Positions 3,784-51,286 of a stretch of DNA of 64,000 nt are shown in pieces. Position 1 is the stretch's first letter; the number at the start of each line of letters is the position of its first letter. Below the pieces are notes generated by a model. That model did no database searches. It had not been told where the DNA came from and was given only the letters and a program-made list of their open reading frames with translations. The translations under genes were made by a program, and so were the position numbers. The stretch is from a virus (lineage: Duplodnaviria > Caudoviricetes): the IMG/VR virus record IMGVR_UViG_2906626472_000001, positions 1-64,000 of that record, one strand, 5' to 3'.

Positions 3784-4107
3784 TCATTTCTTCCCGAATA
3801 CGCTTTCGATCGAGTGGGTATTCTTTTCGACCGGAGCCTTCCAGCTCTTGATGGTGTTCTGCCTGCCGTTGACCTGGCCCTTGACGTGGAAGTCTTGCTC
3901 CTGTCGGGCACGGTTCAGCTTGGCGACCATGACGCGGAAGCCGGCGAGGACCGCTTGATTGTGGTCCCTGAAAGTGTCCGGCTTCCCGTCCTTTCCATTC
4001 ACCCACTCCGGAGCCTGACCCGGTATGCCGAACGTCGCATGGTAGAGACCGTCGATCTCCTTGTGCTGCACGGCTGCCGAGTAGAAGGAGTTGGCGATTT
4101 TCGTCAT
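3784..4107 (-). CDS. Hypothetical phage protein
   Basis: 107 aa ORF, ATGA-coupled to thyX. Confidence 0.65.
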   Translation of the reverse strand: MTKIANSFYSAAVQHKEIDGLYHATFGIPGQAPEWVNGKDGKPDTFRDHNQAVLAGFRVMVAKLNRARQEQDFHVKGQVNGRQNTIKSWKAPVEKNTHSIESVFGKK

Positions 4108-5087
4108 GCAGCCCTCGCGTAGATTTGTCGCTCGATGATCTTTCGGTTCTGGATGAAGCCGCGGAAGTTGCCGTGCAGCTCGGGCGCCTGCCAGTGCTCA
4201 ACCCGCCATTCGCCATACGGTCCAACCTGACCGGGCACGCGAACGTCAGGTGTTGCCTGATGCTCGGCCGGCGATGCGTGCAGCGGGCGGGCGCCGACCA
4301 GATCGTGATAGAGCTGCAGGTCCTTGTGGACCAACGGCTGCTTGCCTTCGTGCGTCAGGTAAGAGGTGCGAGCGCAGCGGGCGACGGAGATTTTGATCTG
4401 CGTCGGCAGGTCCAGCCATTCCCGCTCGTATTCGGTGACGAACGGCAGATGCCATTCACCCGGGCGCAGCTGATCCGGAACGCTTTCGGCGAAAGCATTC
4501 TTCAGCGCGATGGCGAGCGCCTGGATCTCGGGCTGAGCATCCTTGTGGTCGCGCAGCTCGAAGAAGTTGTCCCATTCGGTCGCGGACACCAGGACACTGA
4601 TGTGGGCGAATGGCTCCAGCAGTCGATTGACGACCTGCTTGTGGTATCCGGATTCGTCGAATGCCTGGGCAATCTTGATGGCCTTGTCGCGGGCCAGTAT
4701 CCAAGCTTCCTCCGGACTAAGCTCCAGAAAGCAAGGCTTGAGGTTTTGCTCATCGATAGCTTCGATGAAGATGGGAGCGCGATGTTCCTCGTCTGCTTGC
4801 ATGCCCCGCTGGTTCTTGCCCCAGTGGATCGGCATCGCGGTATCGCGCAGGATGTCTTCGATCAGTCGGCTGACGGGGATCGCACGGGAGCTGGAGGCGT
4901 TGCGCGACAGGTTCCGGTCGTACATTACCCCGTCGTTGATCTCGATGATCATGTCGGGAGTCGAACTGAGGATGCGGTGCGTCAGCTCCTCGGCATGGAT
5001 GAAGCGGGGGTAGCGGAGCAGCGCGGTCTTCAGCTCGATGCCGTCAGGCGAAACGCTGTGCGTGATCTTCTTGGCTGCGATTGTCAT
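4104..5087 (-). CDS. thyX: FAD-dependent thymidylate synthase
   Basis: YPRFIHAEELTHR...SRNASSSRAIP, HKQVVNRLLEPF, AQPEI and HASPAEHQA motifs of phage ThyX. Confidence 0.88.
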   Translation of the reverse strand: MTIAAKKITHSVSPDGIELKTALLRYPRFIHAEELTHRILSSTPDMIIEINDGVMYDRNLSRNASSSRAIPVSRLIEDILRDTAMPIHWGKNQRGMQADEEHRAPIFIEAIDEQNLKPCFLELSPEEAWILARDKAIKIAQAFDESGYHKQVVNRLLEPFAHISVLVSATEWDNFFELRDHKDAQPEIQALAIALKNAFAESVPDQLRPGEWHLPFVTEYEREWLDLPTQIKISVARCARTSYLTHEGKQPLVHKDLQLYHDLVGARPLHASPAEHQATPDVRVPGQVGPYGEWRVEHWQAPELHGNFRGFIQNRKIIERQIYARAA

Positions 5088-5429
5088 TCGGTCGAAGTTT
5101 CCTCAAGGATGCGTGCTGCTTCGGCATCAGTGTCAAAGGGGCCGATCGTGTCGAAGCTCGTTCCGTCCGGCTCCAGCCAGACGATGTACCAACCGGCGTC
5201 GTAAGCATCGCAGCCGGGATGGTGGTGGATGATGGTCGAACCCTGCGGCTCGGCCTCACTCATTGCTTCACCGGAGGCACGGTGCAGTACCAACCGCTCC
5301 TGGTGTTCTTGGCGACCGATCCCGCGGGGCAGTCGGGCTTTGTCGCGTCACCGATGATCAGACAGATCACCAGCAGGAAGAGGGTGATGACGCAGAGGAT
5401 GAGAACCTCTCTCCAGTCGTCGAGCACGA

Positions 5430-5846
5430 TCATGCGGCTTCCTTCGTGATGACGCGCTCTTCGATCGCATCGAGCAGTCGGGGCAGAGCCGTGAGGAGTC
5501 CAGTCAGGAAGCGGGCGCGCTCGGCGGCGGCAGGCGTGTTGCCGGTCATGGCGAGCACGAGGTCATCGCTGTTGCGGACCGAATGCATCACCGTGCGCTC
5601 AGGCAGGTCGAGGCGCTCGCGGGATTTTGCCAGGTGCGTCGCCATCTCAGCGACGTGCTCTTCATCGGTCAGTTCGGCGGAGCCTGCCCAGGTGGGGGAC
5701 TCTACGAGTGTCAGGAACTTCCTCGCTTCGCGGACGAACGAGAGCAATTCCTGTTCGGTATTCTGTTGGTCTGACATGTGGGTCTCCGAAAATTGCCTAA
5801 CCGAAAAGGAGACGGCCGCCCGTAGGCGACCGTCGTTTCTCACCAC
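5430..5846 (-). CDS. Hypothetical protein (start probably near 5777)
   Basis: ORF in operon with phage-like codon usage. Confidence 0.55.
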   Translation of the reverse strand: MVRNDGRLRAAVSFSVRQFSETHMSDQQNTEQELLSFVREARKFLTLVESPTWAGSAELTDEEHVAEMATHLAKSRERLDLPERTVMHSVRNSDDLVLAMTGNTPAAAERARFLTGLLTALPRLLDAIEERVITKEAA

Positions 5847-5852
5847 AGAGAA

Positions 5853-6731
5853 TTACTGGGGCTGAGCGAGCTTCGAGATTTCCGGCTTGGCCGACTGGAA
5901 GGCGCGGAGCAGGCCGTCGTACTCACGCTCGTGGTCGTTGATCCAGTTCGCGTTGGCGACGAAGATGGCGTCGACCTGGATCGTGCCGATGGCCTTGGTG
6001 CCGTAGACCGCGCCGGACGGCTGGATGCGCGGGTAGGTGCCGGCCGGGATCTCGCCATAGCTGTAGACGTACTGGCCGCGGGCATCCTTGGCGACGGTCG
6101 TCATGTCGCGGTCATCGGTGCCGACCAGCACAACGCGGTCGCCAGCGTTCTGGGCGTCGTTCTTCATGAACGCGCTGTTGAGCGCGGTGATCACCAGGGC
6201 GCACTGCACCTGGCTGCCATCGGCCACAGCCTGCACGGCGCGGATGCCGGAGCGGTTGTCCGTCACGACCTTGCCGTAGCGCGCCTTGTCGGCGAGCACG
6301 AACGCATCCCACGTCGTGTGGGCGCCGGAGCCATCCGGTCCGATCGCCACGGTCATGTCCTTCGTCAGGTTGACCATGCGGCCGAGGTCGAGCTTGCGGT
6401 TGCAGATCATGTGCGCCTGCTCCTGGTAGAGCACGCCAGCGCGCTCCAGTGAGCTGATCGCCTTCGCGTTGCGGTTCGAGTAGACGAGCATCGCGTCGGA
6501 CTGCACGAACGCGCCGTCGCACTCGCCGGCCGTCACCTTGTCGAGGTTGTCGAGCGAACCCTTGGTCTCGATGACCTCGACGCCCGGGAACTTGGCCTTC
6601 ACCATGTGGCCAGCCTTGAAGTAGTTGAGCTGGCTGTTGCCGGTGCAGAGCCGGAATTTCACGGCATCGGCGTGGGCGGATGCGGTCATAGCGCCGAGAG
6701 TCAGCGCGGCGATCAGGAAGAGCTTCTTCAT
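5853..6731 (-). CDS. TAXI-family (TRAP-type) periplasmic solute-binding-like protein
   Basis: Signal peptide MKKLFLIAAL...AHA; ETKGSLDNL, AFVQSDA, LYQEQAH and IGPDGSG motifs of TAXI receptors. Confidence 0.75.
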   Translation of the reverse strand: MKKLFLIAALTLGAMTASAHADAVKFRLCTGNSQLNYFKAGHMVKAKFPGVEVIETKGSLDNLDKVTAGECDGAFVQSDAMLVYSNRNAKAISSLERAGVLYQEQAHMICNRKLDLGRMVNLTKDMTVAIGPDGSGAHTTWDAFVLADKARYGKVVTDNRSGIRAVQAVADGSQVQCALVITALNSAFMKNDAQNAGDRVVLVGTDDRDMTTVAKDARGQYVYSYGEIPAGTYPRIQPSGAVYGTKAIGTIQVDAIFVANANWINDHEREYDGLLRAFQSAKPEISKLAQPQ

Positions 6732-6909
6732 TCGTTTCTCCTTTGGAGGCCCGCATTTGCAGGCCGATTGCATTCAAACAAGCGTCAAGGCACTAAAAGA
6801 ACCAGCGGCGGACCGGGTACTTGCGTGCCATTTTCCAGACGGAGGTGGCGATCACGTAGATGCCGAGGCCGTCCAGTATGTGATTGGCGAGGAAGACGCC
6901 GACCATTGG

Positions 6910-7299
6910 CTATCCCTCGACCGGGTTGGGGAGACCCGTTTCCGGGCTGTATTTCTGGTCGGGCCGGCGAGCGAGGCGGGTCGGGTCCTCACCGTTCATC
7001 AGCAGCCGCTTGATCTCCTGGATCATGAACGTCACGCCGACGACGATGTTCGGGATATCGCCGCCGTAGCTGCGGAATCCGCTCCAGTCCTTCGGGTAGG
7101 CCTCCGGGATGACGTGGAAGGCGTCAGCCCCGCGGTTGCGGCGATCGAGTGTCGCGTCGAACTGGGCGAAGCCTGCATTGAACAGCTGCCCCTTCGAGGC
7201 GTCGACTCTCTCGTTCGCGCTGCCCCACATCTTGTTCGTCAGGCCCAGCTCGTTCATCACGAGTTCCAGGGCCGTCTTCTCTGCTTCAATTGCGTCCAA
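6910..7299 (-). CDS. Hypothetical protein
   Basis: 129 aa ORF with AGGAG RBS upstream. Confidence 0.6.
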   Translation of the reverse strand: MDAIEAEKTALELVMNELGLTNKMWGSANERVDASKGQLFNAGFAQFDATLDRRNRGADAFHVIPEAYPKDWSGFRSYGGDIPNIVVGVTFMIQEIKRLLMNGEDPTRLARRPDQKYSPETGLPNPVEG

Positions 7300-7364
7300 A
7301 GTCGCTTCTCCTTTGCATTTATTTTTGCATTCAAGTCAGCGGAAATGCAAGCAGAATTTGGGTC

Positions 7365-7871
7365 CTAATACTTTTTTCCGTTCGGCTTGACGCGGTTCTC
7401 GTGCTTGTGATCGGGGCGCGTCAGGTTGAACGCGCTCTTCTCAGCAACGGCTCCCGCCAGATCCAGGCCGAGCGCGCCGGCCAGGTCGCCGAGCGATCGG
7501 AGGTTGAGGGCAAGTGCGATTTCCAGGCGGTTGAACGGGGCGATTGCCACGATGGCCTCACCGACCTTGGAGTTCATCGCGCCGCCGAGGTCGCCGTTGC
7601 GGATCAGAACGTCTGCCGCTTCGGTCTCCAGCGCGGTGCGATGGGTCAGCTTGTCGTCCATCAGGCTCTTGCGGTCGCCCTCCAGTGCTTCGGAAAGCTC
7701 GCTGTGCATCAGGGCGATCTTGACGGCCGGCATCAGCGGGTTTTGCCGCAGGTCGGCGCCGGTCGCGGGATCGATCCACCAATGAGCATTCATCTTGTGG
7801 CAGATGCGGGTGATCGTCTCGGTAGCGGATCTCAGTTCGTCGAGATCCTGCTGGGTGAAGTTGTCGTTCAC
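7365..7871 (-). CDS. MazG-like nucleotide pyrophosphohydrolase
   Basis: KIALMHSELSEALE...ETEAADVLIR and AVAEKSAFNLTR motifs. Confidence 0.75.
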   Translation of the reverse strand: MNDNFTQQDLDELRSATETITRICHKMNAHWWIDPATGADLRQNPLMPAVKIALMHSELSEALEGDRKSLMDDKLTHRTALETEAADVLIRNGDLGGAMNSKVGEAIVAIAPFNRLEIALALNLRSLGDLAGALGLDLAGAVAEKSAFNLTRPDHKHENRVKPNGKKY

Positions 7872-8197
7872 GTTGGCTCCTTGAATCGGTACTCGTCAGC
7901 CAGGTCCTCGAACATCCGGACGACGTCACGCTGGTGACGGCCCGTCTGATCGTTCCAGTCGAAGGGGTGCTTGCCCAGCTGAGTTTTGATGATGGGAACG
8001 AAGCGCGCGTACGCGCTTCGATCGTCTTGTCCCGCAGCCCGGCGGATCGCCCCCTCGATGTCGAAAGAGCGAGCCTCCTGGCTGAATACGGGGACCGGCT
8101 TACCCTGCCGATCCCTCGCGAGCGTCTTCTGCGTCCAGCGCCCGGGCTTGGAGAACAGCAGAAGGCAGCGCTCCACGATCTCCAGCTCGGTGAACAT
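7868..8197 (-). CDS. Conserved phage hypothetical protein
   Basis: WTQKTLARD...WND...V..MF pattern; coupled to nrdJ. Confidence 0.6.
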   Translation of the reverse strand: MFTELEIVERCLLLFSKPGRWTQKTLARDRQGKPVPVFSQEARSFDIEGAIRRAAGQDDRSAYARFVPIIKTQLGKHPFDWNDQTGRHQRDVVRMFEDLADEYRFKEPT

Positions 8198-11613: not shown

Positions 11614-11626
11614 TACGTGGTGGGCC

Positions 11627-13514: not shown

Positions 13515-13793
13515 TCAGGCTGTTGGGTCGACTGCGAAGTCATCTCGATCCTCGTAGGTTGGTTTGACCATGCCCGATGCGACCATCCAGGCCAGCAGGT
13601 TCATGGCGGGCAGATAGCGGACACGTCCGCCGTCGCTGGTGTGATTGACGATTTTCCCGCGGGGGAATCTTGGTGGTGCCTTCCATCCCTTTGGCGTGGT
13701 GACGAGGACGTGGGCCTCCTTCAAGGGGAGGCCCAGCCTCTTCGCCGCGTTCAGGGAATTGGCGCAGAGCTGCGCCAGGTCCGATGGGTTCAT
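13515..13793 (-). CDS. Hypothetical protein
   Basis: ATGA-coupled ORF. Confidence 0.55.
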   Translation of the reverse strand: MNPSDLAQLCANSLNAAKRLGLPLKEAHVLVTTPKGWKAPPRFPRGKIVNHTSDGGRVRYLPAMNLLAWMVASGMVKPTYEDRDDFAVDPTA

Positions 13794-14206
13794 GCCGCGA
13801 CCGGCTCCGGAAAGAGCTTCCTCAGCTCCGCCTTGACCCGGTCGATGACGCGGTGGGAGAAGTTGTCCGGATGGCGGGCATCGGTGACGATGCCGTCCGT
13901 CATCTCCAACTCCTCGTCGATCCCGAAGGCCGTGTGCGGGTTGCTCGCATGCCACAGGCCGTAATAGTTTCGGATCGACATGCCGGCGAACATCAGGCAG
14001 CCGGCGTGCTCGGGGACGTACATCGCCTTCCGGCCGTCCGGCGACATGTCGGGCATCCGCCAGCTCCGCTCGTCGAGCCAGCGCTTGACCGCCACAGCGT
14101 CAGCGGAGACCTTCGCGAGGATGTCGGCGACCATGCCGTCCTCGTCCAGATAGGATCCGTGCCATTCCTGGCTGTCCCGGGGTTCACCTTCAACAACGTT
14201 TGCCAT
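13790..14206 (-). CDS. Hypothetical protein
   Basis: GMSIRNYYGLW...HPDNFS motif; TAATG coupling. Confidence 0.6.
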   Translation of the reverse strand: MANVVEGEPRDSQEWHGSYLDEDGMVADILAKVSADAVAVKRWLDERSWRMPDMSPDGRKAMYVPEHAGCLMFAGMSIRNYYGLWHASNPHTAFGIDEELEMTDGIVTDARHPDNFSHRVIDRVKAELRKLFPEPVAA

Positions 14207-14682
14207 TACGCGGCTTCCTTCCATTGAGACTCGTTCCGGGCTTCTTTCATCAGCTCTTCGAGATCGAGCCCGGGGATGATGATGGTCGTGATGATCTCCA
14301 TGGCCCGATCGAAATAGGCCTTGAACTCGTCCTCCGGCATCGCGTCGAACGCGGTGGAGGAGGGGCACATGATGATCTCGGCGTCCGGTGAGATGACCGG
14401 CTCGACCACGCCGCAGCCCACCAGGAGCGTCTTGTGGAGCGCATCCTCTGTCGAAAACTTGTCGGTGTTCTCGACCACGATCCGCAGGATCACCCGGTAG
14501 AGGCGATGCCGCGGCCCGCTGCGGGGCTGCGCCAGCTGGATGCGGAGCGGAACGTCGATCGGAAACCGCTCCAGCATCTTCTCGTCGTAGGGCGCATGCG
14601 CTCTCAACGTGATGCCGTCGTCGCCAATCTGCTTGCGCACCAGGATCCACTGGTTCTTCGATTTGTTGCTTGCCTTGCTCAT
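14206..14682 (-). CDS. DUF1367/NinB-like recombination accessory protein
   Basis: PRSGPRHRLY...PSSTAFDAMPEDEFKAYF; within the recombination module. Confidence 0.6.
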   Translation of the reverse strand: MSKASNKSKNQWILVRKQIGDDGITLRAHAPYDEKMLERFPIDVPLRIQLAQPRSGPRHRLYRVILRIVVENTDKFSTEDALHKTLLVGCGVVEPVISPDAEIIMCPSSTAFDAMPEDEFKAYFDRAMEIITTIIIPGLDLEELMKEARNESQWKEAA

Positions 14683-14689
14683 GAAGTCC

Positions 14690-15771: not shown

Positions 15772-16743
15772 TTATGCCGCTTCCGTTGCGGCGGGTTTCT
15801 CGTTGCTGTTGGCTGCCTTCTTGCGCGGAGCCCGGGATTTCTTCTCAGGCTTCGGCTCCTCGGCCGGCGGCGGCATGTTCGCTGCGTCCTCGACCGCCTT
15901 CTTGATGGCTTCCTCATCGAACTTGATGAGCTGCTTGCCGTCCTTCGACAGGTTGATGGACACGCCCTTGCCGGCCGCAGACTTGGCGTCGGCGGGGAAC
16001 AGGCGCTTGATGGCTTTCTTCGCCTTCTCGTGCTTCTCGACGGACGGCTTCGTGCTGAGCAGCGTGAAGGCGAGGTCGCCCCACTCGTTGTTCGTGCTCA
16101 TGTCGACGACCTTGATCCGCTCGGCGACGGGAATGTCGACCTTCGGAGCGCCAGGCGTCCGGCCGGTGACGACGCAGTCCCAGAAGTCCTTCTCCGCTTC
16201 GAGGAGCGCGAGCTGGTAGAACAGGTCGGCCTCGACTTCGATGATGACGTGCTGGGCGGCACCTGTCAGAATCGACAGGTAGGCCTTGGGCAGATCGGTC
16301 ACCATCATGTTGTGCTGGACCTGCGGGTAATACTTCTCGTACGCCTCCTCCTTCGAGAAGCCGAACGGGAACATGAACTTGAACTCGACCACGGCGATCG
16401 GGTCCGCGTCCTCAGCCTTGCGCACGAGGCCGTCGAGCGTGGTGTGTGCCTTGTCCCAGGCGTAGTAGTGGACCTTCTTTTGCTCGTCCGTGACCAGCAG
16501 CTCGGTCTCGTCCTCGAACAGGTCGGCGTTCAGCGGCTCGGTCAGGTTGCCGAGATTGATCAGGATGACGTCGCTGAGATCCTCAGGGAGAACCTCGCCG
16601 CGCTTCTCCATCCAGAGCTGCTCGATCGCTGCCTGATCACCGGACATGATGATCTTGGCATCCGATCCTCCGATCGACTTCATGCGTGCGGCGCGAGCCT
16701 CATCGCTCATGCCGATATGTCCAGTGCGCCTGCGCATTTTCAT
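15772..16743 (-). CDS. YqaJ-like (lambda-exonuclease family) recombination nuclease
   Basis: RMKSIGGSD, TLDG...EFK and YYPQVQHNM motifs. Confidence 0.85.
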   Translation of the reverse strand: MKMRRRTGHIGMSDEARAARMKSIGGSDAKIIMSGDQAAIEQLWMEKRGEVLPEDLSDVILINLGNLTEPLNADLFEDETELLVTDEQKKVHYYAWDKAHTTLDGLVRKAEDADPIAVVEFKFMFPFGFSKEEAYEKYYPQVQHNMMVTDLPKAYLSILTGAAQHVIIEVEADLFYQLALLEAEKDFWDCVVTGRTPGAPKVDIPVAERIKVVDMSTNNEWGDLAFTLLSTKPSVEKHEKAKKAIKRLFPADAKSAAGKGVSINLSKDGKQLIKFDEEAIKKAVEDAANMPPPAEEPKPEKKSRAPRKKAANSNEKPAATEAA

Positions 16744-17444: not shown

Positions 17445-17692
17445 CGTTGTATCGGTCTCCTGGTGAACGGGTCGATGCCGTCTTCACGCATCTGGACGAA
17501 GAGCTGATCCTGGGAGCGATCCAGCACAGCCTCGGCCGCTGCCAGATACGCGGACCGAGCCAGCTCGATCTCGTGGGGAGAGGCCCCGGACAGCAGAGCC
17601 GCCTTGAACCTCTCCAGCGATGCAACCTGCACATGGATCGCCGCGTGCAGGTTGAGGTGGGCGTTAGCCCCTTCCGGGCTACGCTGCGTCAC
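17441..17692 (-). CDS. Hypothetical protein
   Basis: ORF overlapping both neighbours. Confidence 0.5.
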   Translation of the reverse strand: MTQRSPEGANAHLNLHAAIHVQVASLERFKAALLSGASPHEIELARSAYLAAAEAVLDRSQDQLFVQMREDGIDPFTRRPIQR

Positions 17693-19167: not shown

Positions 19168-19512
19168 TCAGGCGGGAACGAGGGTGGGCTTCTGCGTGGC
19201 GACGGGTTTGCCCCCGAGGACTCGGCGCCGGGTGGCGCGGTACTCGAAGAGGTTCGTGCCGATGCGCTGCTGCGTGAGGTGCAGCAGGCCGTCCTTGCTG
19301 TCGGCGAGGACGCGGTCGGCAACGAAGTTGAGGGCTTGAACGCGGGTGCGTTCGGCGGACCGGAGCACGTCGCTTTCGGGCACCACGACCTGGCGGTCGA
19401 ACTGGAGGTCACCCTGCCAGTAGACCAGGACGTCGCCATTGGCGGCGCCCTTGAGCCATTCGTAATACTCGGAGAGAGCGCCCGGACCGATTTCCAGGAC
19501 GGTTCTCGCCAT
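19168..19512 (-). CDS. Hypothetical protein
   Basis: 114 aa ORF in operon. Confidence 0.6.
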   Translation of the reverse strand: MARTVLEIGPGALSEYYEWLKGAANGDVLVYWQGDLQFDRQVVVPESDVLRSAERTRVQALNFVADRVLADSKDGLLHLTQQRIGTNLFEYRATRRRVLGGKPVATQKPTLVPA

Positions 19513-26032: not shown

Positions 26033-26533
26033 TTGCTTTTCGCAACCTGTTGGATTTGTTTTCGATCAGGCGGCTTCGGCAACCGGTGCTCGCTCGATGC
26101 GAGCCATGCGGCCAAGCTTCCATTGATCACGGATGACCAACACAAGCTCGGCGCGGTCCATCGGCTCGGAAACCTGACGCCACTTCGGACCAGGCTTCGT
26201 CAGCGCCCACACAACGAACATCGCGGGCACGGGCTTCGTCTTCATGGTGACTCCTTGGATTTGATGAAGTTGGTGATCGGGCCGTCGCCCTGATCAAAGA
26301 CGTTGACGATCCCCCGGCCTTCCATCTCGTTGACGGGGATCCACACGGTGAAGGTGAGGCCCTGCGGAGGGGCGAGCATCTCGATGCACTCGATGATGCC
26401 GTCAGCGCCGGGCAGGATCGTGTGCTCGTTATCTTCGTGGTCGTCGCCGACGCAGACATCGAGCATCGTCACGCGCTGCCCGAGCTTGAACCCCTCGGCC
26501 TCCGGCAGGCCATGCCGATGATCGAACGGACGG

Positions 26534-28267: not shown

Positions 28268-29848
28268 TCACGCCGCCTTCTCCTGCTGCTCCTTGTTGTC
28301 GTTGGCGGGCTTCTGCTTCGGCACGGGCGCAGCCAGGTCGACGAGGGTGTTCATCGAACGGGTCGCCGCGACGTAGCAGAGGTTGTCCTCCTGCTCGATC
28401 TCCCAGGGCATGGAGGCGTACTTCGAGGGGCAGGTTGCGAACCGGTCGAGCCAGAACACGTACTTCCACTCGCGGCCCTTCGACTTGTGGATCGTCGAGA
28501 GGGTCAGGATGCCCGTCACGTTGTCGGCGAAGATCGAGTTGATGTATGCGACCACGTCGGTGATCAGGTGCTGCTTCTTTTCGAGGCAAGCATCCATCAC
28601 GACCTTGAGTGTCTCCGCCTTGTCCTCGGCCTCCTGGACTCGAGCCATCTTCTTCTTGGCCATCCAGCGCTGGGTTTCCATGTCCAGCCATTCTTCGAGC
28701 TTGTCTTCCAGCTCGGGGATGGTGGAGATCGACTTCCAGCGGGTCGCCAGCTTGATCAGCGCCTCGCCGATGTTGCGGCCCTCGATCCGGCAGGGGATGT
28801 TCTGGCGGATCAGTGCGAAGGCGGCGGACACCAGCGGCCGGGTGTTGCGGCAGAGGATCGCCGAGTCCCCATAGTGAAGCGCCTTCTTCACCATGAAGTC
28901 CTCGAAGGTCATCGCCGTCACCGTGCCCTGCGGCGCGCTCTCGTGTGCCTGGATGTGATCGACCCAGGTCTGAGCGAACCGGACGATGTTCTTCGGGCAG
29001 CGGTAGGTCACCGTGAGCGGCATTTCCTTCGCCTGGAAATACTGCTTCAGGTTCTCCATGCTCTCGTTGTCGGCGCCCGTGAAGCCGTAGATGGCCTGCC
29101 GGGGATCGCCGACGCCGAAGAACCGGCCGGTCTCTTTGAGCAGCGCGTCAGCCAGAAGCTTGCGGCATAGGTTGGCATCCTGCGCCTCGTCCATGATCAC
29201 GTTGTCGTACTCGAAGAACTTGATCTGGTAGAGTAGCGGCAGATAGATCATGTCATCGAAGTCGACGACCTGTCGCAGCTCGTTGGACGCCTTGAGCAGC
29301 TTGATCCCGACGTCGATGAGCTGGTCCGCCTTCTTCTGCAGCGGCTCTTCGTCAAACAGATCGAAGTGGTCGACGATGTCCTCCCAGATCGAGGTGTCGT
29401 CGATGTGACCCTGGCCCGGGACGCCGACAGCATTGGCCTTGGCGAGCGACACCAGGTGGCAGATCGTGCCGGTGTGCGGCACCAGCGTGATCGGGATCTC
29501 GTCGTTCTCGACCCAGGAGGCGCAGATCGCGCCGACCTTGTCGCCCTTGACGATGACGCCGGGGACGGCCTTCTTGTAGTTCCGCAGGCCGATCGAGTGG
29601 GTGGTGGCCGCCTCAACCCGCTTCCAGTCGATGCCGCGCTTCTTCAACTTGGCCTTGATCTCTTCGGCAATCTTCTTGTTGTAGGCCAGGATGATCGAGA
29701 TCCCGCCCATGCCATCGGCCGCTTCGAGGATGGTTGTGGTCTTGCCGGCGCCGGCCACGGCGATCAGCACGATAGAGCTGGTTCCGGTTCGGGCTTCCTT
29801 GATGAATGCCGCCTGCTGGGGCGACCATTGAATTGCTGTGGTCTGCAT
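28268..29848 (-). CDS. UvrD/Rep-like SF1 helicase
   Basis: AVAGAGKTT, MDEAQD, VGDPRQAIYGF, TYRCP, STIHKSKGRE and YVAATR. Confidence 0.92.
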   Translation of the reverse strand: MQTTAIQWSPQQAAFIKEARTGTSSIVLIAVAGAGKTTTILEAADGMGGISIILAYNKKIAEEIKAKLKKRGIDWKRVEAATTHSIGLRNYKKAVPGVIVKGDKVGAICASWVENDEIPITLVPHTGTICHLVSLAKANAVGVPGQGHIDDTSIWEDIVDHFDLFDEEPLQKKADQLIDVGIKLLKASNELRQVVDFDDMIYLPLLYQIKFFEYDNVIMDEAQDANLCRKLLADALLKETGRFFGVGDPRQAIYGFTGADNESMENLKQYFQAKEMPLTVTYRCPKNIVRFAQTWVDHIQAHESAPQGTVTAMTFEDFMVKKALHYGDSAILCRNTRPLVSAAFALIRQNIPCRIEGRNIGEALIKLATRWKSISTIPELEDKLEEWLDMETQRWMAKKKMARVQEAEDKAETLKVVMDACLEKKQHLITDVVAYINSIFADNVTGILTLSTIHKSKGREWKYVFWLDRFATCPSKYASMPWEIEQEDNLCYVAATRSMNTLVDLAAPVPKQKPANDNKEQQEKAA

Positions 29849-29933: not shown

Positions 29934-30296
29934 TTATGCGGCGACTCGGTGCTCCTGGGCACGCAGCGCCTTCAGGGCCTGGACGATACGCTGGGCGTTC
30001 GCCTCGCTGCGGGGCTGGGCGATGACCTTGCGGTCCTCGAAGATGATCCAGCAGTTATCGTAGATGTCCTCGATCGCGAACACCTCGTCGTTGTCGGCGA
30101 AGAACGCGGTCTTGCCGGCCGGCGTGAGGTGGTGGGTCTGGATCATCGTGTAGGCGTGCTCGTCGATGAACCCCTTCTTCTTCAGGTTGTTCAGCGAGTT
30201 GACGTGCCCTTCGCGCAGATAGAGGCTGGTGCTGACGGACATCGCCAGGATCCGCGCAATGATGCGCTCTTGCAGGTTAGTCAGCATCTTCGTCAT
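29934..30296 (-). CDS. Hypothetical protein
   Basis: 120 aa ORF in operon. Confidence 0.55.
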   Translation of the reverse strand: MTKMLTNLQERIIARILAMSVSTSLYLREGHVNSLNNLKKKGFIDEHAYTMIQTHHLTPAGKTAFFADNDEVFAIEDIYDNCWIIFEDRKVIAQPRSEANAQRIVQALKALRAQEHRVAA

Positions 30297-31431: not shown

Positions 31432-33558
31432 TTAGGCAGCCTGATCGAGTTCAGCGCCGGTGAACTCGACCTCTTCGTTGTCGTTCGCAGCCGCCGGGCG
31501 AGACAGCAGCTCGAAGTAGTGTTCGAGCTTGGCAATCTTCTCGGTGTTGCGATGGGAGTAGTAGGTGTGCTGTTCGACGATGGCCTTGAGCAGCATGTAC
31601 TCGCCGCACAGGACCTCGAACCGCTTGCTGATCGCCGCGATCGGGCAAGCCACGTCTGGCTTGTTGACCTCGACGCCGACCTTCTTGAGAGCAGCGAACG
31701 CCTTATCGCTGTCGGTCGATGCGGTGGAGTTGCTCTCAAGCTGAGCGTAGAGGGTTTTCAGATCCTCGTGGAACAGCTTGATGTCTGCCGGAGCCTTGGC
31801 GAAGGGCTCCATCTTCGCCACTTCCTGGAGGTTATGGTTCAGATTGTTGAGCGACTTCTTGTGCAGACCGGTGAACTCGGCGACGTTCACCTTGTCGCGG
31901 ATCGGCTGGATCATGTCGTCGGCGAGCATGGTCCAGTCACCTTGCACGACCTGGTCCTGGCTCTTCACCAGAATGACCGTGCCAACCTCGATCAGACCAA
32001 ACTCGAACGCGGTCATCACGAAGCCCTCGACATCGCTGAACGAGATCGAGGCGGTCTGGCTGCCGTGTAGGCGGTAGAAGTCGTTCGAGCCACCGCGACG
32101 CCGGGTGTAGCTCGGGAACTGCTCCACCATCAGGCCACCCTCGGCCAGGTCGACGTCCTGGGTGAGGCGCTGCAGCCGACCACCGGACGTGACCATGATG
32201 GTCTTGCGCTTGCGGATCGTCTTGCTGACGCGCTTGGTCACCGGCACCTTGAAGGTGTCCAGCTCGATGACCTCGGGATTGCCGAGGGCAGCCAGAACAT
32301 CGTCGCGGAACAGGCGCTTGCAGCGGACCCAGAGGACCTTCTTCCCGACCAGCTGAGCCATGTGGAAGCGGCTCAGCGAGTAGCTCGGGTTGTGCTCGAT
32401 GACGACCGTGGCATCGGCCGCCCACTGGGTGCGGACCGTGGTGTCCTCGAACTTGTCGAACTGCTGCCAGCCCTCGCCGAGGGTGTCCATCTTGCAGTTG
32501 GCCTTCGACAGGGTCTCGGTGATGCGCAGGCCCTGCCAGTCGACGATGCTCCGCAGCCGCTCAGTGCGGGACCGGCCGAGCGTCTCCGTCTCCTTCTCGA
32601 AGATGGCGGCGGCTTCAAACAGGGTCTCGGCCGCGTCCACCTTCTCGCGCAGCTGCTCGATGAAGCTGTCCTCATACTGCTTGACGAGGGACTTCAGCGT
32701 CGTCTTGGTCGTCTCGTCGTAGGCCAGCTCTTCGCGGGACAGGATGACCTTCAGCGAGCCGATCGGCGCATCGAACAGGACGACGTCGTCGTAGTCGAGG
32801 AAGCCGCTGGTCTCGACCTGGTCGAGATCGAACGGATACATCACGCAGCCCATGCGAACGCGGGGGCCGTAGAAGGGGACCGAGCCTTCCTTGTACTTGG
32901 TCCAGTTGTCGCCCTCGCTGAGCACGACCGGCTCCTTCCAGGTCACCGCACCCTCGGGGAAAATCGTCGGGCGGGGTTGGAACGACCAGAGGATGTCGCG
33001 GGCGGCCTTGGCGAAGCCTTCGATGTCGTCGCGGCGGACAGCGAAGGAAACCTCCATGCCGTTCGGCTGATCGGTCGGACCGTCGTGCAGCAGGTCCATC
33101 TTCGGCATGCCGTCGTCGGCAAGCGACATGATGTAGGCCAGCATCCGGCCGTTGTAATACGAGGTGATGTTGTAGCTGCCGGAGCCGGTATCGCCGATCA
33201 GGTAGGCATACGGGCTCTTGGAGCCGATGCCCCAGCCACCAACCTCAGTGTTGGTGTCGCGCTTGGTGGAGGCGTACGGCTTGGCGTAGACGTTCTCCAT
33301 GGCCTCTTCGGACATGCCGGTGCCGTAGTCGCGGATGCGGAAGACCGGGTTGAGGCGGGTTGGAAGGTGAACCTCGAAATTGCCGCGGGCGACGTCCCAG
33401 GCGTTGGTCGACAGCTCGCGCATCGGATAGCCGATCTTGTCCTTCGCCAGACCGGAGAACGTGGCGTAGAAGGCCACCGCGTTGGTCTCGAACGCGACCT
33501 TGATCTCCTTCTTGACGCCGGTTGCGATGTGGGCGTGCTGCTTCATTCCAAGCTTCAT
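31432..33558 (-). CDS. rIIA-like protein with GHKL ATPase N-terminus
   Basis: RELSTNAWD, IRDYGTGMS, STKR...GGWGIGSKSPYAY and SREELAYDETT. Confidence 0.8.
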   Translation of the reverse strand: MKLGMKQHAHIATGVKKEIKVAFETNAVAFYATFSGLAKDKIGYPMRELSTNAWDVARGNFEVHLPTRLNPVFRIRDYGTGMSEEAMENVYAKPYASTKRDTNTEVGGWGIGSKSPYAYLIGDTGSGSYNITSYYNGRMLAYIMSLADDGMPKMDLLHDGPTDQPNGMEVSFAVRRDDIEGFAKAARDILWSFQPRPTIFPEGAVTWKEPVVLSEGDNWTKYKEGSVPFYGPRVRMGCVMYPFDLDQVETSGFLDYDDVVLFDAPIGSLKVILSREELAYDETTKTTLKSLVKQYEDSFIEQLREKVDAAETLFEAAAIFEKETETLGRSRTERLRSIVDWQGLRITETLSKANCKMDTLGEGWQQFDKFEDTTVRTQWAADATVVIEHNPSYSLSRFHMAQLVGKKVLWVRCKRLFRDDVLAALGNPEVIELDTFKVPVTKRVSKTIRKRKTIMVTSGGRLQRLTQDVDLAEGGLMVEQFPSYTRRRGGSNDFYRLHGSQTASISFSDVEGFVMTAFEFGLIEVGTVILVKSQDQVVQGDWTMLADDMIQPIRDKVNVAEFTGLHKKSLNNLNHNLQEVAKMEPFAKAPADIKLFHEDLKTLYAQLESNSTASTDSDKAFAALKKVGVEVNKPDVACPIAAISKRFEVLCGEYMLLKAIVEQHTYYSHRNTEKIAKLEHYFELLSRPAAANDNEEVEFTGAELDQAA

Positions 33559-33588: not shown

Positions 33589-34557
33589 TCAGGCAGCGCC
33601 TGAGAGGAGGTCGTCGAACAGGGAGCCGAAGGCGTCTCCCGTGTCGTCATCGTGTTCGTGGATCGCGTCGTGGAGCTGGTCGAAGGTGAAGCCCTTGTTC
33701 TCCAGGAAGGCGGAGACCTTCTCCGGGTACCAGTAGACGAGGTCGCGCAGCGTCTCTTCACGACGACGCAGGCGACGGAGGCCAAGACCAGAGCCGGTCG
33801 GCTTCTTGATCTTCGGCTTCACCGGGGCAAAAGGGTCGCGTTCAATCACCAGCTTGGACTGGTCGAACTTGACCATGTGGTCGCGCAACTCGATCAGGTG
33901 GCCGACATCGAGCGCCTCGTGGGGATGGTGCTCGTTGTAATAGCCGACCGAGAGGTTCGTGCATTCCTGCACCAGGTGCATGTATTGCTTGGTGTCGGTG
34001 ACGAAGCCGGTGTCGTCTAGCCGATAGCGCGACGGCAACATCGGCTGCATCGACTTGGCAAAGGCGTCCGAGCAGCAGCGCTGCCGCTGGTGGGTGATGA
34101 TCGAGTCGATGCCCTTGCGATCGAAGGCGATGGCCGCCTCGATGCTGATCAGCCGGCCCGGCTCGTTCTCTGCGATTGCCCGCGATCCCTGGCAGCCGAT
34201 CTCTTCCGCGTCGTGGAAGATGTACATGCCCGGTACCTTGGCCTTGATCATCTCGATCATGATCCAGACGCCGGCAGCGCAGTCAGCGCCGAGGCAGCTG
34301 GACTTCGAGTTGACCGTAAGCGTGATGAACTTGCCGTCGAAATCGACCCGCTGGTATCCCTCGGAACGATGGACGCTGTCCGTGTGCGAGGACCACAGCA
34401 CGGTCGGGACCTCGCCGATCGTCAGGCACCAGTTGCCGTGCTTGTCGCGCTTGGCGCCGGTAGGGACGATGAACTTCTCGATGAAGGCCTTCTCGGTCGC
34501 CGACCGGGCAGGGCGCCGGTAGGACAGCATGGCGATGATGGTTTCGAGATCAGACAT
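33589..34557 (-). CDS. M20/M28-family zinc peptidase-like protein
   Basis: SHTDSVH, LGADCAAG, AEEIG, AFDRKG and NLSVGYYNEH. Confidence 0.8.
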   Translation of the reverse strand: MSDLETIIAMLSYRRPARSATEKAFIEKFIVPTGAKRDKHGNWCLTIGEVPTVLWSSHTDSVHRSEGYQRVDFDGKFITLTVNSKSSCLGADCAAGVWIMIEMIKAKVPGMYIFHDAEEIGCQGSRAIAENEPGRLISIEAAIAFDRKGIDSIITHQRQRCCSDAFAKSMQPMLPSRYRLDDTGFVTDTKQYMHLVQECTNLSVGYYNEHHPHEALDVGHLIELRDHMVKFDQSKLVIERDPFAPVKPKIKKPTGSGLGLRRLRRREETLRDLVYWYPEKVSAFLENKGFTFDQLHDAIHEHDDDTGDAFGSLFDDLLSGAA

Positions 34558-38042: not shown

Positions 38043-38432
38043 TCATGCTGCCTCCAGATGCGGGATCTCGTGGCGATAGAATTGCGGCTTCGGCGCCTCG
38101 TACCAGAACGCCACACGCGGCGGCTCCTCGTAGACCGCAATGACGATCGGGTTGGCGTTGCGATACCAACGTGCTGCCTTGCGCAGTGTGCGTCCGCTTT
38201 CGCGGGCGGTGTCGATGATGAGGAGCCTGAATTTCTCGGGGCACAGCTGGCCGTACGGGATGAACGGGATGTGCAGCATGTGCGAGGTGTAGACCGCGGC
38301 GATAGCGCCGGACCGGCCAGGCCCCGTGACTGCGCCAACGCTGTCGACGTTGTGCTCCTGAAGGGCGATGCGCAGCTGAGAGGCAAACTCTTCTTCGCTG
38401 ACGATGCGGACAGTTCTTCTCGGGCTAGTCAT
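38043..38432 (-). CDS. Phosphoribosyltransferase-like protein
   Basis: GPGRSGAIAA and LLIIDTARESGRTL (PRPP-loop-like); VAFWYE. Confidence 0.6.
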   Translation of the reverse strand: MTSPRRTVRIVSEEEFASQLRIALQEHNVDSVGAVTGPGRSGAIAAVYTSHMLHIPFIPYGQLCPEKFRLLIIDTARESGRTLRKAARWYRNANPIVIAVYEEPPRVAFWYEAPKPQFYRHEIPHLEAA

Positions 38433-42093: not shown

Positions 42094-42964
42094 ATCAAAT
42101 CAACGTAGCGTCACCGCAGCCCGTGGCCCTGCGGTCCATCCAAGGCAGACTGCCCCGGTCCATGGTCAGGCAGCTTTCATGTTGTCGTTGCAGGCTGGGC
42201 GGATCGCATCCCGGCTCATGGCCAGGAGGTGAATGTCCATCGTGAGCTGCTCGGTCCAGGTGTAGCCGGTGACGCTGCGATGACGATGCGGGAAGGTGAC
42301 CCGGTCGACAACCAGGGTGGTGAAGGGCAGGCGATAGCCCGGTGCTGTTCCGATGGCGAACATCAGATGTTCCTCAGTTTCTGGCGTTGTGTGGTGCTCA
42401 GCTGCAGCAGCAGCCCGGCCAGCTCGAAGCCCTCGGTGTCGCCGGTTTCGAGCGCATACTCGGCGGCGCAGGTGACGTGCTTGTTCCGGACGTTGCCGTC
42501 ATCGAGCACGAGATGAAGCGAGCCCCAGCTCGGGTTCGCGGCCTTGTAGGCACGGAACCTTTCGATCACAGCGGGCAGGGACAGGGTGTTGTTGGGTTGC
42601 ATCTCGACTCCTCGCTTGCATTATAGGCTGCAAATTCTTGCATTCAAGCAAATACTATGACACACCAAAGCGCCGCCGAGATCAGGACAGCAGTCCCGAG
42701 GGTCTTGGCGCTGATGAACTCACTCGGCGGAGCTTGGAGCATTGGTGGTCACCCTTCTGATCGTGTTGGTGGAGAAGATCAGGCAAAGCCTACGGCTTCG
42801 CCGGACTTCATGAGGATCGCGACGAAGCCGAGATCCCAGGAGCGATCGGGATTGCGCTGCCGCCTGCGCTTCACCCGGAAGGTGTCGGCGCGGTCTTCGT
42901 CGACGGCTTTCCTGGCAGCGCTCAGGGCGGACCGTTCGGAGATGTAGAGGTTGTCGTCCATGGC

Positions 42965-45316: not shown

Positions 45317-45931
45317 TCATTTCATCGGGCCGAAATCTAGGAGTTCCAGCTCTTCGCCGAGTGCCTTGACGAACTCGGCCGGCTTCTCCTTCGCCTCGAA
45401 GGCGCGCTGCACTTCGTCGGGGTGATCGCTGATCAGATCGGCGTAGCACCACTGCTCCTCCGCCTCATCGCGGCAGTCCTTGATGAACTGGTCGCGCTCG
45501 CGGGTTGAAGGCGGGTACTTGCTGACGAACGCTTTGCAGCGGGCGCGGGCAGCCTGATACAGGCTGCGGAGGTCTTCCGGACGAGCGACAACCGGATTGA
45601 CGTCTTCGCCGTCGCCGAAGTTGAGGCAGTAGATCATGAACTCCGGCACGAACTCGAAGTCCCAGCAGATCATGCCATCGCGATCGGCCTCGGGCATGAT
45701 GGCCCAGACGCTCTCGATGATCGGTGCCATCTGCCACGCAGCCCAGCGCATGCCGCGGGCGCCGTAGTCCTCGCAGTATTGCGCCATCTGCTGCTCGGCT
45801 TCCTTGTACGGATGGTCGTCGGGCAGCGTCGTGCCGACGATGAGCCGGGTGTCTTCGAGCACCGCGTAGGCAGCCATCGCGGTCTCGATGATGAGGTAGT
45901 TGGTCTTGATGATCTCAGGCGTCTTGCCCAT
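45317..45931 (-). CDS. Hypothetical protein
   Basis: 204 aa with phage codon usage and an RBS. Confidence 0.6.
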   Translation of the reverse strand: MGKTPEIIKTNYLIIETAMAAYAVLEDTRLIVGTTLPDDHPYKEAEQQMAQYCEDYGARGMRWAAWQMAPIIESVWAIMPEADRDGMICWDFEFVPEFMIYCLNFGDGEDVNPVVARPEDLRSLYQAARARCKAFVSKYPPSTRERDQFIKDCRDEAEEQWCYADLISDHPDEVQRAFEAKEKPAEFVKALGEELELLDFGPMK

Positions 45932-48900: not shown

Positions 48901-50602
48901 TGGTGACGACGGTCAGGGTGGGTTGAGGACGTGGGACGAGTCTGGTCACGAACGTTGCTCCTTGAGCGGTGGGGAAGGCATTTGCACGAATGCTAAAGCA
49001 AATGCAAGAGCAAATTCGCCCTAACAAAGCCAAACTTTCATGCGAAAAGATGAGGGTCCGGAAGGCGCTCAGCGCCCGCCCGGAAATTCGAGAATATTTC
49101 CCGAATAAATGGGCCGCCGACGAATTTCGGACCGCCCCGGGGTATTTTCGAAGGCCGCCTCTAGGGCCTCGATCGTGGCTTGGATCACCTGGTCCTGGAC
49201 ACGGGGAGAGAGGACCACGGAGCCGGCTTCCATCAGGATCGCCGACTGGCTCGGGGTCCGATTGGTGCGGGTAGAGTACGCACAGAACAGAGCGCGCAGA
49301 CGCTCACGCATTGGGTTCCTCCATGCGGTTCAGTTTCACGTTTCAGCTGGAAATCACGGGATATCGGGGCCGCCGCCATTCGCGGGCCGCCGGACCTCCA
49401 CCACCTCAAGCAAGAGGCACAGGAGGAGGAGCAGCAGGGACAGGAGACACAGCCAGTAGGGATGGCTCAGGGGAGGGTGCAGACACACGAGGAGTCCACA
49501 CCGGCCTGTTTCTGGCACTCACCAGCACGCAAACACACGGATTTCGAGCGTAGACACGTACGGGCCGTCGTCTCGAAACTTCGCTCGCCATAAAAGAGCG
49601 GATTAATTTTCACGTCGAAATGGGACAAACGGCCCCCTCGGACACAAGATATAGTGCCCGAGGGGGCCAAAATGATCACGAAAGCGGGGTCCAGACCCTG
49701 TTTTGGAGGGGTCACCTACCAGATCTTGTTATCTGGTCAGCTGCGCTATGTGCGCCTCCAGCCCTGAGGCTGCGACTTTGCCTGCCAGTGTCCAGCCGGC
49801 GTATGCAAATGCACACAGGAAGGCAAATGCGACGGGGACGGGGATGACGAGTGCGGAGAGTCTTCTCATGGGATTTCCTTTCAGGGGTTTTGGTCAGGGA
49901 CCGCCAGTGCGCCGGGACGTCGACGGGGCGCACGCCGCCAATTCGGGGTTAGCGAGCGCGGATCTGGAGCGCGGCATCGAGCGGAGGGGTGGCGCGCATC
50001 CGGGCGCCGGTCAGCACGGCGTCTTCCAGATCGTCGGTGTAGTAGGCGGAGGGCTCAGCCTTGGAGTAGGGCAGCTCGGCGAAGGCGACGCGGAACTCGC
50101 GGTCACGGCGAGTGAGGCGCATGCCGGACAAAGCGAGGCGCTGACGGGCTTCGGTGATGGTGAACATGGGACGGATTCCTGGCGTGTGGTGAATCGGTGT
50201 TGCGGGGATGGGGTGGAGGCGTGCTCAGCCGGCCATGATGCGGCCGACGATCGGCGAGTGGCCGGAGCGCAGGAGGCGATTGGGGCGCGGGTAGACGATG
50301 GGCGCGAACCACTCAGCCGGCTTCTTGCGGATGAGCGGGCGCACGGGTGGCGTGGCCTCGACCGGCTCATGTCCGAGCATGGTGCGGACCTGCCGCACGG
50401 TGGCTTTGGTGACGAGCGTACGCCCGGTGCGGACGCACACGAGGCGTGCGTTGGCTGGCGAGGTCTCGATCTGGCGGAGCGTGGCGCGGGACAGCACGAA
50501 CTCAAGGCGCTGGCCGGAGCTGTCGCGTGGGGTGACCCATGACCCGTCGTGTTGGGTCTGGAGGTAGCCGATGGGTGGTCTCATGGCGTGTGGTCCAAAT
50601 AG

Positions 50603-50637
50603 AAACCCCGCCCGGAGACGGACTCCGAGCGGGGGTT
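50603..50637 (-). terminator. Intrinsic terminator after the 50666..51286 gene
   Basis: Minus strand AACCCCCGCTCGGAG-TCCGT-CTCCGGGCGGGGTT followed by TCTATTT. Confidence 0.6.
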
Positions 50638-50665
50638 GAGGAGGGACGGCAGTGGTGGGGTGGGG

Positions 50666-51286
50666 TTACGCGGCCTGCGCAACCGGGGCGGACGCTGCCG
50701 GAGCGGTGGCGGGGGTTGCCTTGGCTTCCTTCGGAGCCTTGGCGCCGCGCGCAGCGGTGGCGTTCTGCTTCTGGCGCTCGACCGCGGTCTCGTCGCCTTC
50801 CGGGCGAATGGCGAGGAGCTTGGCGATCATGCTGGTATGGTCGCGGCCGGTCTCCTTGTGGTCGCGTTCCATCTTCTTGACGAGCGAGTCGATGGACTTG
50901 GCGATGTCCATGGGCACGTAGTCCGCCTCCGGCTTGAAGGCGTAGAACGGCTTGGCCATGGCGTCGCCCAGCTTGACCGGGTTGGCGCCATTGAACTTGA
51001 TGTCGCCACCTTCCGCGAACGTGACGGGACCGAAAAATTCGAACCACGCCTTGACGGCATTCTTGCGCGTCATGTCGGGCAGCGACGAAAGCAGTTCCGT
51101 CACGAGGCGGATGTCGGAATGCTTGCCGACATGGGCGAGCACGGAGCAGCAAGCGACATGGATGTCGCGTTGCAGGGTCGCACCTCGAGTCTTGATCGAA
51201 GCGAGCGCCTTCTTGATGGCGGTTTCGCCGTCAATGAGCTTGATGACGGACGGAGTAGCAGCCTTAACGGTCGTGGTCTTGGACAT
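50666..51286 (-). CDS. First gene of the left arm; hypothetical protein ending APVAQAA
   Basis: AGGAG RBS before MSKTTTVK; strongly biased codons. Confidence 0.75.
   Translation of the reverse strand: MSKTTTVKAATPSVIKLIDGETAIKKALASIKTRGATLQRDIHVACCSVLAHVGKHSDIRLVTELLSSLPDMTRKNAVKAWFEFFGPVTFAEGGDIKFNGANPVKLGDAMAKPFYAFKPEADYVPMDIAKSIDSLVKKMERDHKETGRDHTSMIAKLLAIRPEGDETAVERQKQNATAARGAKAPKEAKATPATAPAASAPVAQAA

Follow-up and report, generated by a model that had tools for sequence, protein, structure and literature searches.

A subset of early proteins of a temperate Bradyrhizobium phage ends in genome-encoded tails that resemble the host tmRNA tag

Two-part tails in the early arm of the phage

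The DNA analysed here, referred to as the window, is a stretch of 64,000 nucleotides (nt) corresponding to positions 1 to 64,000 of the IMG/VR virus record IMGVR_UViG_2906626472_000001, and is part of a 144.7-kb (144,687 bases) temperate Bradyrhizobium phage related to phage BDU-MI-1 (121,342 bp; host B. diazoefficiens USDA110). From about 2.3 kb to 51.3 kb of the window, nearly all genes lie on the minus strand; this leftward arm includes genes for an integrase, ThyX, a class II ribonucleotide reductase, a YqaJ nuclease, SSB, a primase-helicase, a UvrD-type helicase and rIIA. The ribonucleotide reductase gene shares 79.6% DNA identity with its BDU-MI-1 counterpart, while the closest named relatives of the UvrD-type helicase were found in Bradyrhizobium genomes (e.g. 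B. ottawaense, at 87% identity). As related proviruses are present in IMG/VR, three of which (G001, G002 and G005) were taken whole for comparison, these and the Bradyrhizobium relatives identify the element as a temperate phage of this genus. The finding reported here concerns its early/replication arm, in which several proteins end in tails resembling both ends of the peptide tag encoded by the transfer-messenger RNA (tmRNA, ssrA) of the host. The five genes on which the argument rests are the following (protein lengths in amino acids, aa):

28268 to 29848, minus strand: UvrD/PcrA-type helicase, 526 aa, recognised by UvrD-type Pfam marks and its translation
31432 to 33558, minus strand: rIIA-like protein, 708 aa, with a weak HATPase_c Pfam match; the BDU-MI-1 orthologue is annotated rIIA
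15772 to 16683, minus strand: YqaJ-type recombination exonuclease, 303 aa (Pfam YqaJ, E = 3e-11)
42166 to 42363, minus strand: 65-aa protein with no Pfam match, ending ...RPACNDNMKAA; the next same-strand gene lies 1,942 nt downstream
50666 to 51286, minus strand: first gene of the leftward arm, 206 aa, with an Ala/Pro/Lys-rich tail ...SAPVAQAA and a terminator-like hairpin after it

Genes were called with a home-made codon-usage caller, which returned 111 or 112 genes in the window in two runs, and the set of five genomes used throughout (the window, BDU-MI-1, G001, G002 and G005) totals 799 proteins, it being understood that orthologues from related genomes are not independent observations. 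The two-part motif N[DS]N-x(2-18)-AA was found at the real C-terminus of 4/112 window proteins (helicase, rIIA, YqaJ and the 65-aa protein) and of 20/799 proteins of the five genomes, all 20 of them encoded in the early arm. At internal pseudo-termini of the same proteins it was never seen (0/13,696 in the window; 0/119,683 in the five genomes). High-GC phage controls gave 0/729 at real termini and 3/102,330 at internal positions, and a sample of host genes gave 0/89 and 1/18,236, respectively. All tail genes are ordinary open reading frames ending in TAA or TGA. An earlier note on this DNA, made from its letters alone, had grouped 13 proteins ending in Ala-Ala as one tag-like set; the ANDN...AA tails are real and stand at the very C-terminus, but the set is a mixed one, in which four proteins only are bipartite. 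The bipartite tail is the strong signal and the plain -AA end the weak one.

The tag of Bradyrhizobium-type genomes

The same note had quoted a Bradyrhizobium tag and proposed that the tag be read from ssrA. This was done on Bradyrhizobium-type tmRNA loci, collected with a degenerate pattern of the quoted peptide, which gave matches in a single viral contig (L084) and in at least 118 stretches of metagenome sequence. ARAGORN called permuted tmRNA genes in 66 of the 81 loci examined, with ANDNFAPVAQAA as the tag, the other 15 being without a tmRNA call; 65 of the 66 tag loci have a G+C content of 60-66%. About 2 kb from the tmRNA gene, the tag loci contain a gene for a 504-aa permease, which in 6 of the 8 loci compared (5/7 distinct sequences) is letter-identical to NCBI proteins of B. 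diazoefficiens, B. japonicum or Bradyrhizobium sp. Because these adjoining permeases match named Bradyrhizobium proteins, ANDNFAPVAQAA is assigned to Bradyrhizobium-type genomes, an assignment that we infer from neighbouring genes rather than from a tag read in a named genome, and by which the peptide quoted in the note proves correct. More broadly, the translated consensus line of Rfam family RF01849 starts with ANDN and ends with AA, and the Caulobacter tag is given as AANDNFAEEFAVAA in the text available from PMC9393093. No tmRNA gene was detected in the window by ARAGORN or Rfam, nor in BDU-MI-1 and five proviruses by RF01849.

As a side observation, a permuted alpha-type tmRNA gene is present in complete form on the viral contig L084 (L084:6726-7174), whose G+C content is 37%; RF01849 recognises it as a full alpha_tmRNA with 114.5 bits, and the tag read there by ARAGORN is letter-identical to the Bradyrhizobium type (ANDNFAPVAQAA) despite the AT-richness of the contig.

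Conservation of the helicase, rIIA and YqaJ tails

The helicase ends in ...PANDNKEQQEKAA, and its tail ...PKQKPANDNKEQQEKAA, coded at 28268-28321, consists of ANDN, six residues and AA, which is the spacing of the tag ANDNFAPVAQAA, as the earlier note had expected. In the AlphaFold model of this helicase, the sole protein folded (mean predicted local distance difference test score, pLDDT, 89.1), the last strand comprises residues 498-505, no secondary structure follows, and residues 512-526 have pLDDT values below 50, so that the tail is predicted to be disordered and to lie outside the fold. The model is in line with the unstructured, accessible tail of an ssrA-like ClpX degron.

Among the 120 helicase homologues listed, 118 contained the last core motif that served as anchor, and C-termini reaching at least 10 residues beyond were counted as extended. 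Such an extension was present in 63 homologues, 47 of which end in AA, 57 in AA or VA, and 36 of which contain NDN; none of the 55 homologues devoid of an extension displays an AA/VA end or NDN. The gap between NDN and the last two residues measures 6-7 residues in 28 of these 36 sequences, as compared to 6 in the tag. Within the 45 closest homologues, NDN is found in 35, an N-x-N variant in 43 and an AA or VA end in 44, the residues of the linker being variable; variant tails of helicase relatives read ANENN, ANSNE, ANANE and ANTNI. In relatives P0022 and P0035-P0037, the NDN motif occurs twice in tandem, and in P0032 once, all five (loci L006, L008 and L021) ending in ...VA. A QLxL-like stretch, which may resemble clamp-binding peptides, precedes the ...VA end in P0032 and P0035-P0037.

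The rIIA-like protein ends in ...AAANDNEEVEFTGAELDQAA, with a tail ...RPAAANDNEEVEFTGAELDQAA coded at 31432-31494 that comprises ANDN, an acidic linker and, like the tag, QAA. Its gene is uncoupled; a gap of 19 nt comes after the TAA stop, and the next ribosome-binding site is located past the stop. When NDN was sought in the last 32 residues of the 120 rIIA homologues listed, homologues 1-76 (at least 38% identity) were found to end in AA in 68 cases and to contain NDN in 34, all 34 ending in AA, and homologues 77-120 showed an AA end in 3/44 and NDN in 0/44. The linker of rIIA spans 10-20 residues and has a strongly acidic composition. As for the YqaJ exonuclease (...AANSNEKPAATEAA / ...KKAANSNEKPAATEAA), 5/5 orthologues end in AA and have NSN or NDN 7-8 residues upstream of the end. 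Overall, NDN and AA are still present in homologues with as little as about 40-55% identity, while linker sequence and length vary, and the tails are missing from distant homologues. The ANDN of both the helicase and rIIA corresponds exactly to residues 1-4 of the tag.

Other tag-like ends

The NDN-x2-AA end of the 65-aa protein is found in 6/6 orthologues from related phages. The protein encoded at 50666-51286 was confirmed to end in the last seven residues of the host tag (APVAQAA), and 11/12 of its long-form homologues end in AA, as compared to 4/21 short forms; the long-form ends include APVAQAA (twice, the exact match), ALAQAA, APVAIAA and PEAIAA. At the DNA level, 21/24 bases of window positions 50666-50689 (APVAQAA plus stop) are identical to the commonest tmRNA tag frame, including GTT, which makes up 9.2% of the Val codons of the window, and TAA, while the flanks differ. 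This match is a weak hint that the end may once have been captured from ssrA. A tmRNA fragment at this position was considered and rejected, as the match is limited to 24 bases, the flanks differ, and neither Rfam nor ARAGORN reported anything.

Three further window genes encode proteins with tag-like ends or starts:

14206 to 14682, minus strand: 158-aa protein ending ...NESQWKEAA; overlap of this end with the ribosome-binding site and TAATG of the following gene
19168 to 19512, minus strand: 114-aa protein ending ...KPTLVPA
7365 to 7871, minus strand: 168-aa protein starting (f)Met-NDNFTQ (window 7857-7871), with a GGAG site 6 nt before its GTG start

All members of the 14206 family (5/5) end in AA, and ANDN is inserted in those of BDU-MI-1 (...KDAANDNDERRNEEEAA) and G002 (...KAANDNEERRNEEAA). 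Orthologues of the 114-aa protein end in ...NDNLVPA, ...NDNLVSA or ...NDQLVPA; in the family as a whole (n = 10), NDN is present in 3 members and ND[QDE] or NEQ in the rest, and all end in x-A. The third protein carries its motif at the opposite end: its orthologues start with MTDVANDNFTQ or MIVANDNFTE, and thus bear the first five residues of the tag N-terminally, and the protein has no AA end. N-terminal ANDNF or MNDNF was encountered in two unrelated families (window 7857-7871, BDU-MI-1 32785, G001 1905 and G005 113717), MNDNF also being the start of a methyltransferase-like protein of G005; ANDNF was found nowhere else in the called proteomes and in none of the controls.

Plain Ala-Ala ends

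Independent gene calls reproduced all 13 -AA ends of the earlier note letter for letter, as well as its four -VA ends, and added a 14th -AA end at 26066-26245 (...AEAA). Apart from those described above, the genes concerned are:

4104 to 5087, minus strand: ThyX-like protein (Pfam Thy1), ending ...IYARAA; ATGA overlap with the next gene
5430 to 5777: ending ...KEAA; coupled end of the same kind as ThyX
13790 to 14206: ending ...PVAA; coupled end of the same kind as ThyX
gene at 17679: ending ...RDAA
26066 to 26245, minus strand: 59-aa protein ending ...APVAEAA; 386-nt gap after the stop
29934 to 30296, minus strand: 120-aa protein ending ...EHRVAA; uncoupled, 85-nt gap after the stop
33589 to 34557, minus strand: M28-like peptidase (Pfam Peptidase_M28, E = 5.7e-6), ending ...LLSGAA; uncoupled, 30-nt gap after the stop
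38043 to 38432: ending ...LEAA; coupled end of the same kind as ThyX

The next gene has its ribosome-binding site and start within the context of the ThyX end, gagggctgcaTGA. In the 29934-30296 family, the AA end is present in 10/12 orthologues and represents a plain conserved -AA end; in the 26066-26245 family it is present in 6/9.

In the window, 14/112 proteins end in -AA, versus 34/729 in other high-GC phage loci (about 2.5-fold; Fisher P = 0.003), these controls being 28 high-GC loci collected through distant helicase homology. The corresponding figures were 26/212 for BDU-MI-1, 18/172 for G002, 19/174 for G005 and 14/129 for G001, 33/1,087 for low-GC phage loci, and 4/89 for non-redundant Bradyrhizobium-type host genes. 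With genes defined as coupled when their stop lies within 20 nt of the next same-strand start, -AA ends were found in 49/418 coupled genes of the five-genome family versus 16/345 of the controls, and in 42/381 versus 18/384 uncoupled genes (window alone, 5/53). In the window, rIIA, 42166, 29934, 26066 and 50666 are uncoupled. The control for translational coupling that the earlier note had called for thus shows an excess just as strong in uncoupled genes. According to position, -AA ends occur in 14/84 early-arm versus 0/28 late-arm genes of the window, and in 74/484 versus 17/315 genes of the five genomes. Coupling alone was therefore rejected as the source of the -AA ends, since the excess is equal in uncoupled genes and only 2/139 late-arm coupled genes have an AA end.

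The controls, which are unrelated high-GC phages, are themselves uneven: loci L041, L015 and L040 are rich in -AA ends (8/49, 6/29 and 5/41; 12-21%), while 16/28 control loci have none. The -AA habit may depend on lineage or host.

A candidate route to SspB and ClpXP

We propose, with a probability of roughly 0.5, that a subset of the early proteins of this phage carries genome-encoded tails that mimic both ends of the host tag for delivery to ClpXP by the adaptor SspB. The two-part mimic would be carried by the UvrD-type helicase, rIIA, the YqaJ exonuclease and the 65-aa protein, and the product of 50666, the first gene of the arm, would copy the C-terminal half of the tag only. In E. coli, SspB binds the tag's first seven residues and ClpX its ALAA end, according to the text available from PMC9963277. 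By analogy, (A/V)NDN would copy the part bound by SspB in studied systems, to whose site the tails appear similar in sequence, and the terminal Ala-Ala, with its free carboxylate, the part bound by ClpX. A putative host SspB would tether the tailed proteins to ClpXP, after which the weak K/E/Q-A-A end would be engaged by ClpX; a tag-like adaptor site combined with such a weak end is the layout to be expected for adaptor-dependent turnover. A plausible benefit would be that helicase, nuclease and rIIA activity is limited to a time window, or that leaky expression is kept low in lysogens.

Certain features of known degrons agree with this proposal. The terminal Ala-Ala of ssrA-like ClpX degrons (C-motif 1) is present in 14 window proteins and is conserved in the helicase, rIIA, YqaJ and 50666 families, and the adaptor part is matched, by sequence, by the ANDN of the helicase and rIIA and by the N-terminal ANDNF of the 7365-7871 orthologues. 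In an E. coli screen (PMC10862746), an Ala-Ala end is reported for 91% of the top 100 degrons and as insufficient alone, a terminal LVA is reported to work as well, and the authors consider it likely that weak degrons depend on adaptors. In Caulobacter, proteolysis of a protein is very fast when an ssrA tag is encoded in its gene, and is slowed by deletion of sspB (PMC9393093).

A number of points weigh against the delivery reading, and some of them lead to other explanations. Concerning the tails themselves, (i) NDN is followed by K, Q, V or E, where the tag has F, and if this F is needed by the adaptor, binding may be weak; (ii) a favourable residue upstream of AA (e.g. Leu third from the end) is lacking, the ends being mostly KAA, EAA, QAA and DAA, and polar residues before AA weaken tags in the E. 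coli screen, as stated in the text available from PMC10862746, the host tag itself ending in QAA; (iii) SspB is not encoded by the phages, as judged with the Pfam SspB profile, which does match the Caulobacter control genome; (iv) the tail is missing in 4/4 helicase homologues of named Dinoroseobacter, Brevundimonas, Sphingomonas and Ochrobactrum phages, which means that phages of this class do not carry it as a rule; (v) the ribosome-binding site and GTGA start of the gene that follows coincide in part with the ...EKAA of the helicase, which could thus be conserved for another reason; and (vi) besides the four bipartite proteins, the window holds only the 50666 end, made of the last seven tag residues, and two more genes with motif-bearing orthologues. 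Concerning the plain ends, (vii) about 5 of the 14 -AA ends of the window are expected at the background rate (4.7%); (viii) 7/14 lie in overlaps with the next gene, several including its ribosome-binding site, in keeping with a caveat of the earlier note; (ix) the early-gene enrichment that this note had asked for, evident per gene, is not significant when the early/late contrast is made by orthologue family (at least 3 genomes; 10/62 versus 3/46, P = 0.15); and (x) the major capsid protein (BDU-MI-1 74133-75113; G001 and G002 orthologues) ends in ...KHKLAA or ...KHKIAA in 3/4 relatives. Because orthologues are not independent, the controls are uneven, many ends lie in overlaps and the capsid protein ends in ...KLAA, the plain -AA end is a real but modest and mixed signal. 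Finally, (xi) in the 65-aa family, 13/17 short representatives at 50% identity have NDN and 5/17 end in AA, the rest running on for a few residues.

Points (vii) to (ix) speak for an absence of function, whereby -AA ends would stem from GC-rich composition and from overlaps with ribosome-binding sites, ATGA or GTGA, and NDN tails would be neutral low-complexity sequence, perhaps captured from ssrA by recombination, as the 21/24 bases shared by the 50666 end and the tmRNA frame, with the rare GTT, might suggest. We regard this as quite improbable, given that the enrichment is equal in uncoupled genes and late-arm coupled genes seldom end in AA, that AAC-GAC-AAC is not GC-driven, that NDN and AA outlast changes of the linker down to about 40-55% identity, and that the motif is never internal in 119,683 positions.

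Point (xi) bears on a different use of the motif, already envisaged in the earlier note, in which the tails, for instance on abundant early proteins, act as decoys or competitors: they would occupy SspB or ClpX and slow the degradation of tmRNA-tagged or phage proteins, without being degraded themselves. The 65-aa family, which more often keeps NDN than AA, may in this manner attach to a partner yet escape degradation, and an AA end is lacking altogether from the N-terminal ANDNF protein. The motif moreover occurs on several early proteins at once, and the tandem NDN of some helicase tails would suit a dimeric adaptor, SspB being a homodimer (PMC9963277, available text). Against this, the helicase, rIIA and YqaJ families strongly retain the terminal AA, for which an adaptor plug alone would have no use, and helicase-type enzymes are probably not present in the amounts required to titrate a protease. 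Competition is therefore doubtful as an account of the tails in general, but it is the explanation we favour for the 65-aa family and the N-terminal ANDNF protein. A combination of both ideas seems to us rather a long shot: SspB would serve as a programmable hub, with terminal tag mimics marking some phage proteins for timed destruction, and degron-less mimics (the 65-aa family and the N-terminal ANDNF protein) either blocking SspB or dragging a bound host target to ClpXP, which would amount to a degradation tag of natural origin provided in trans.

Replisome proteins commonly have docking tails at their C-termini, and the NDN tail could be a docking peptide for some other phage or host replication-recombination hub, its likeness to the tag being convergent or irrelevant. 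The carriers are indeed mostly proteins of DNA metabolism (helicase, YqaJ, 14206 family), the phage SSB ends in ...DDDIPF, and a QLxL-like peptide follows NDN in some helicase variants. Docking would leave unexplained the terminal AA, the 6-7 residue spacing, the ...QAA and APVAQAA ends and the exact ANDN/ANDNF identity with the tag, and no candidate partner was identified; we hold it to be unlikely.

Comparison with known systems

Delivery to SspB and ClpXP, the reading we prefer, places the phage tails next to several known systems. Like them, the alphaproteobacterial tmRNA tags (ANDNFAPVAQAA, AANDNFAEEFAVAA) start with ANDN, end in Ala-Ala and stand C-terminally in an unstructured stretch; with the Bradyrhizobium-type tag in particular, the helicase shares the 6-residue spacing, and rIIA and 50666 share ...QAA. 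The tags differ in that they are added by trans-translation, whereas the phage tails are encoded in the gene, in ordinary stop-ended reading frames and with no tmRNA gene found in the window or its relatives, and are thus not tmRNA-added tags; the FAPV in the middle of the tag is also missing from the phage ANDN tails. As members of the ssrA-like ClpX degron class, the phage tails fit in position, terminal AA and disorder (helicase model), but not in their upstream residues. Engineered DAS-type tags combine a good SspB site with a weakened ClpX end, which makes degradation adaptor-dependent; phage K/E/Q-A-A ends together with NDN would act likewise, with the difference that DAS tags are man-made and the phage tails natural and conserved.

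The E. coli ssrA/SspB/ClpXP system, as outlined in the text available from PMC9963277, likewise relies on a single short peptide whose N-terminal part binds the adaptor and whose C-terminal part binds ClpX, but belongs to another host class and has truncated products as substrates, whereas those of the phage would be natural full-length proteins. Lambda O and Mu transposase are comparable in that host ClpX acts via terminal motifs on proteins of replication or transposition; these motifs are not ssrA copies, and no SspB-type site is described for them in the available portion of PMC8138137. Anti-sigma factors of M. tuberculosis also have genome-encoded C-terminal ssrA-like ends for regulated proteolysis, but are cellular proteins, with no adaptor-binding half described in the portion of 10.1101/491043 available.

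It is already known that host ClpXP degrades phage proteins in a regulated manner, and that a few cellular regulators have genome-encoded ssrA-like ends. What would be new, if the reading is true, is that several proteins of one phage clade carry both tag halves, i.e. adaptor site and protease site, as a conserved copy. This would represent a natural counterpart of engineered adaptor-dependent degradation tags, offer natural candidate substrates for alphaproteobacterial SspB beyond tmRNA-tagged proteins, and provide a sequence rule, (A/V)NDN-x-AA at the terminus, for finding such substrates. A full-text literature search, which leaves subscription journals mostly outside, retrieved no description of tag mimicry by phage proteins in titles or abstracts, and nothing relevant by title on SspB in Bradyrhizobium; nor did the tag peptide occur in any of the papers searched.

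Other features of the window

Three tRNA genes were called toward the right end of the window:

59787 to 59861: tRNA Gly-TCC
62474 to 62548: tRNA Met-CAT
62657 to 62730: tRNA Trp-CCA, called by ARAGORN only; its BDU-MI-1 counterpart is marked as a pseudo-tRNA in the record of that phage

A region of about 1.3 kb (window 51287-52650), which separates the end of the leftward arm from the genes that follow, is without a convincing gene call, contains a few short repeats, and could be a control or origin region.

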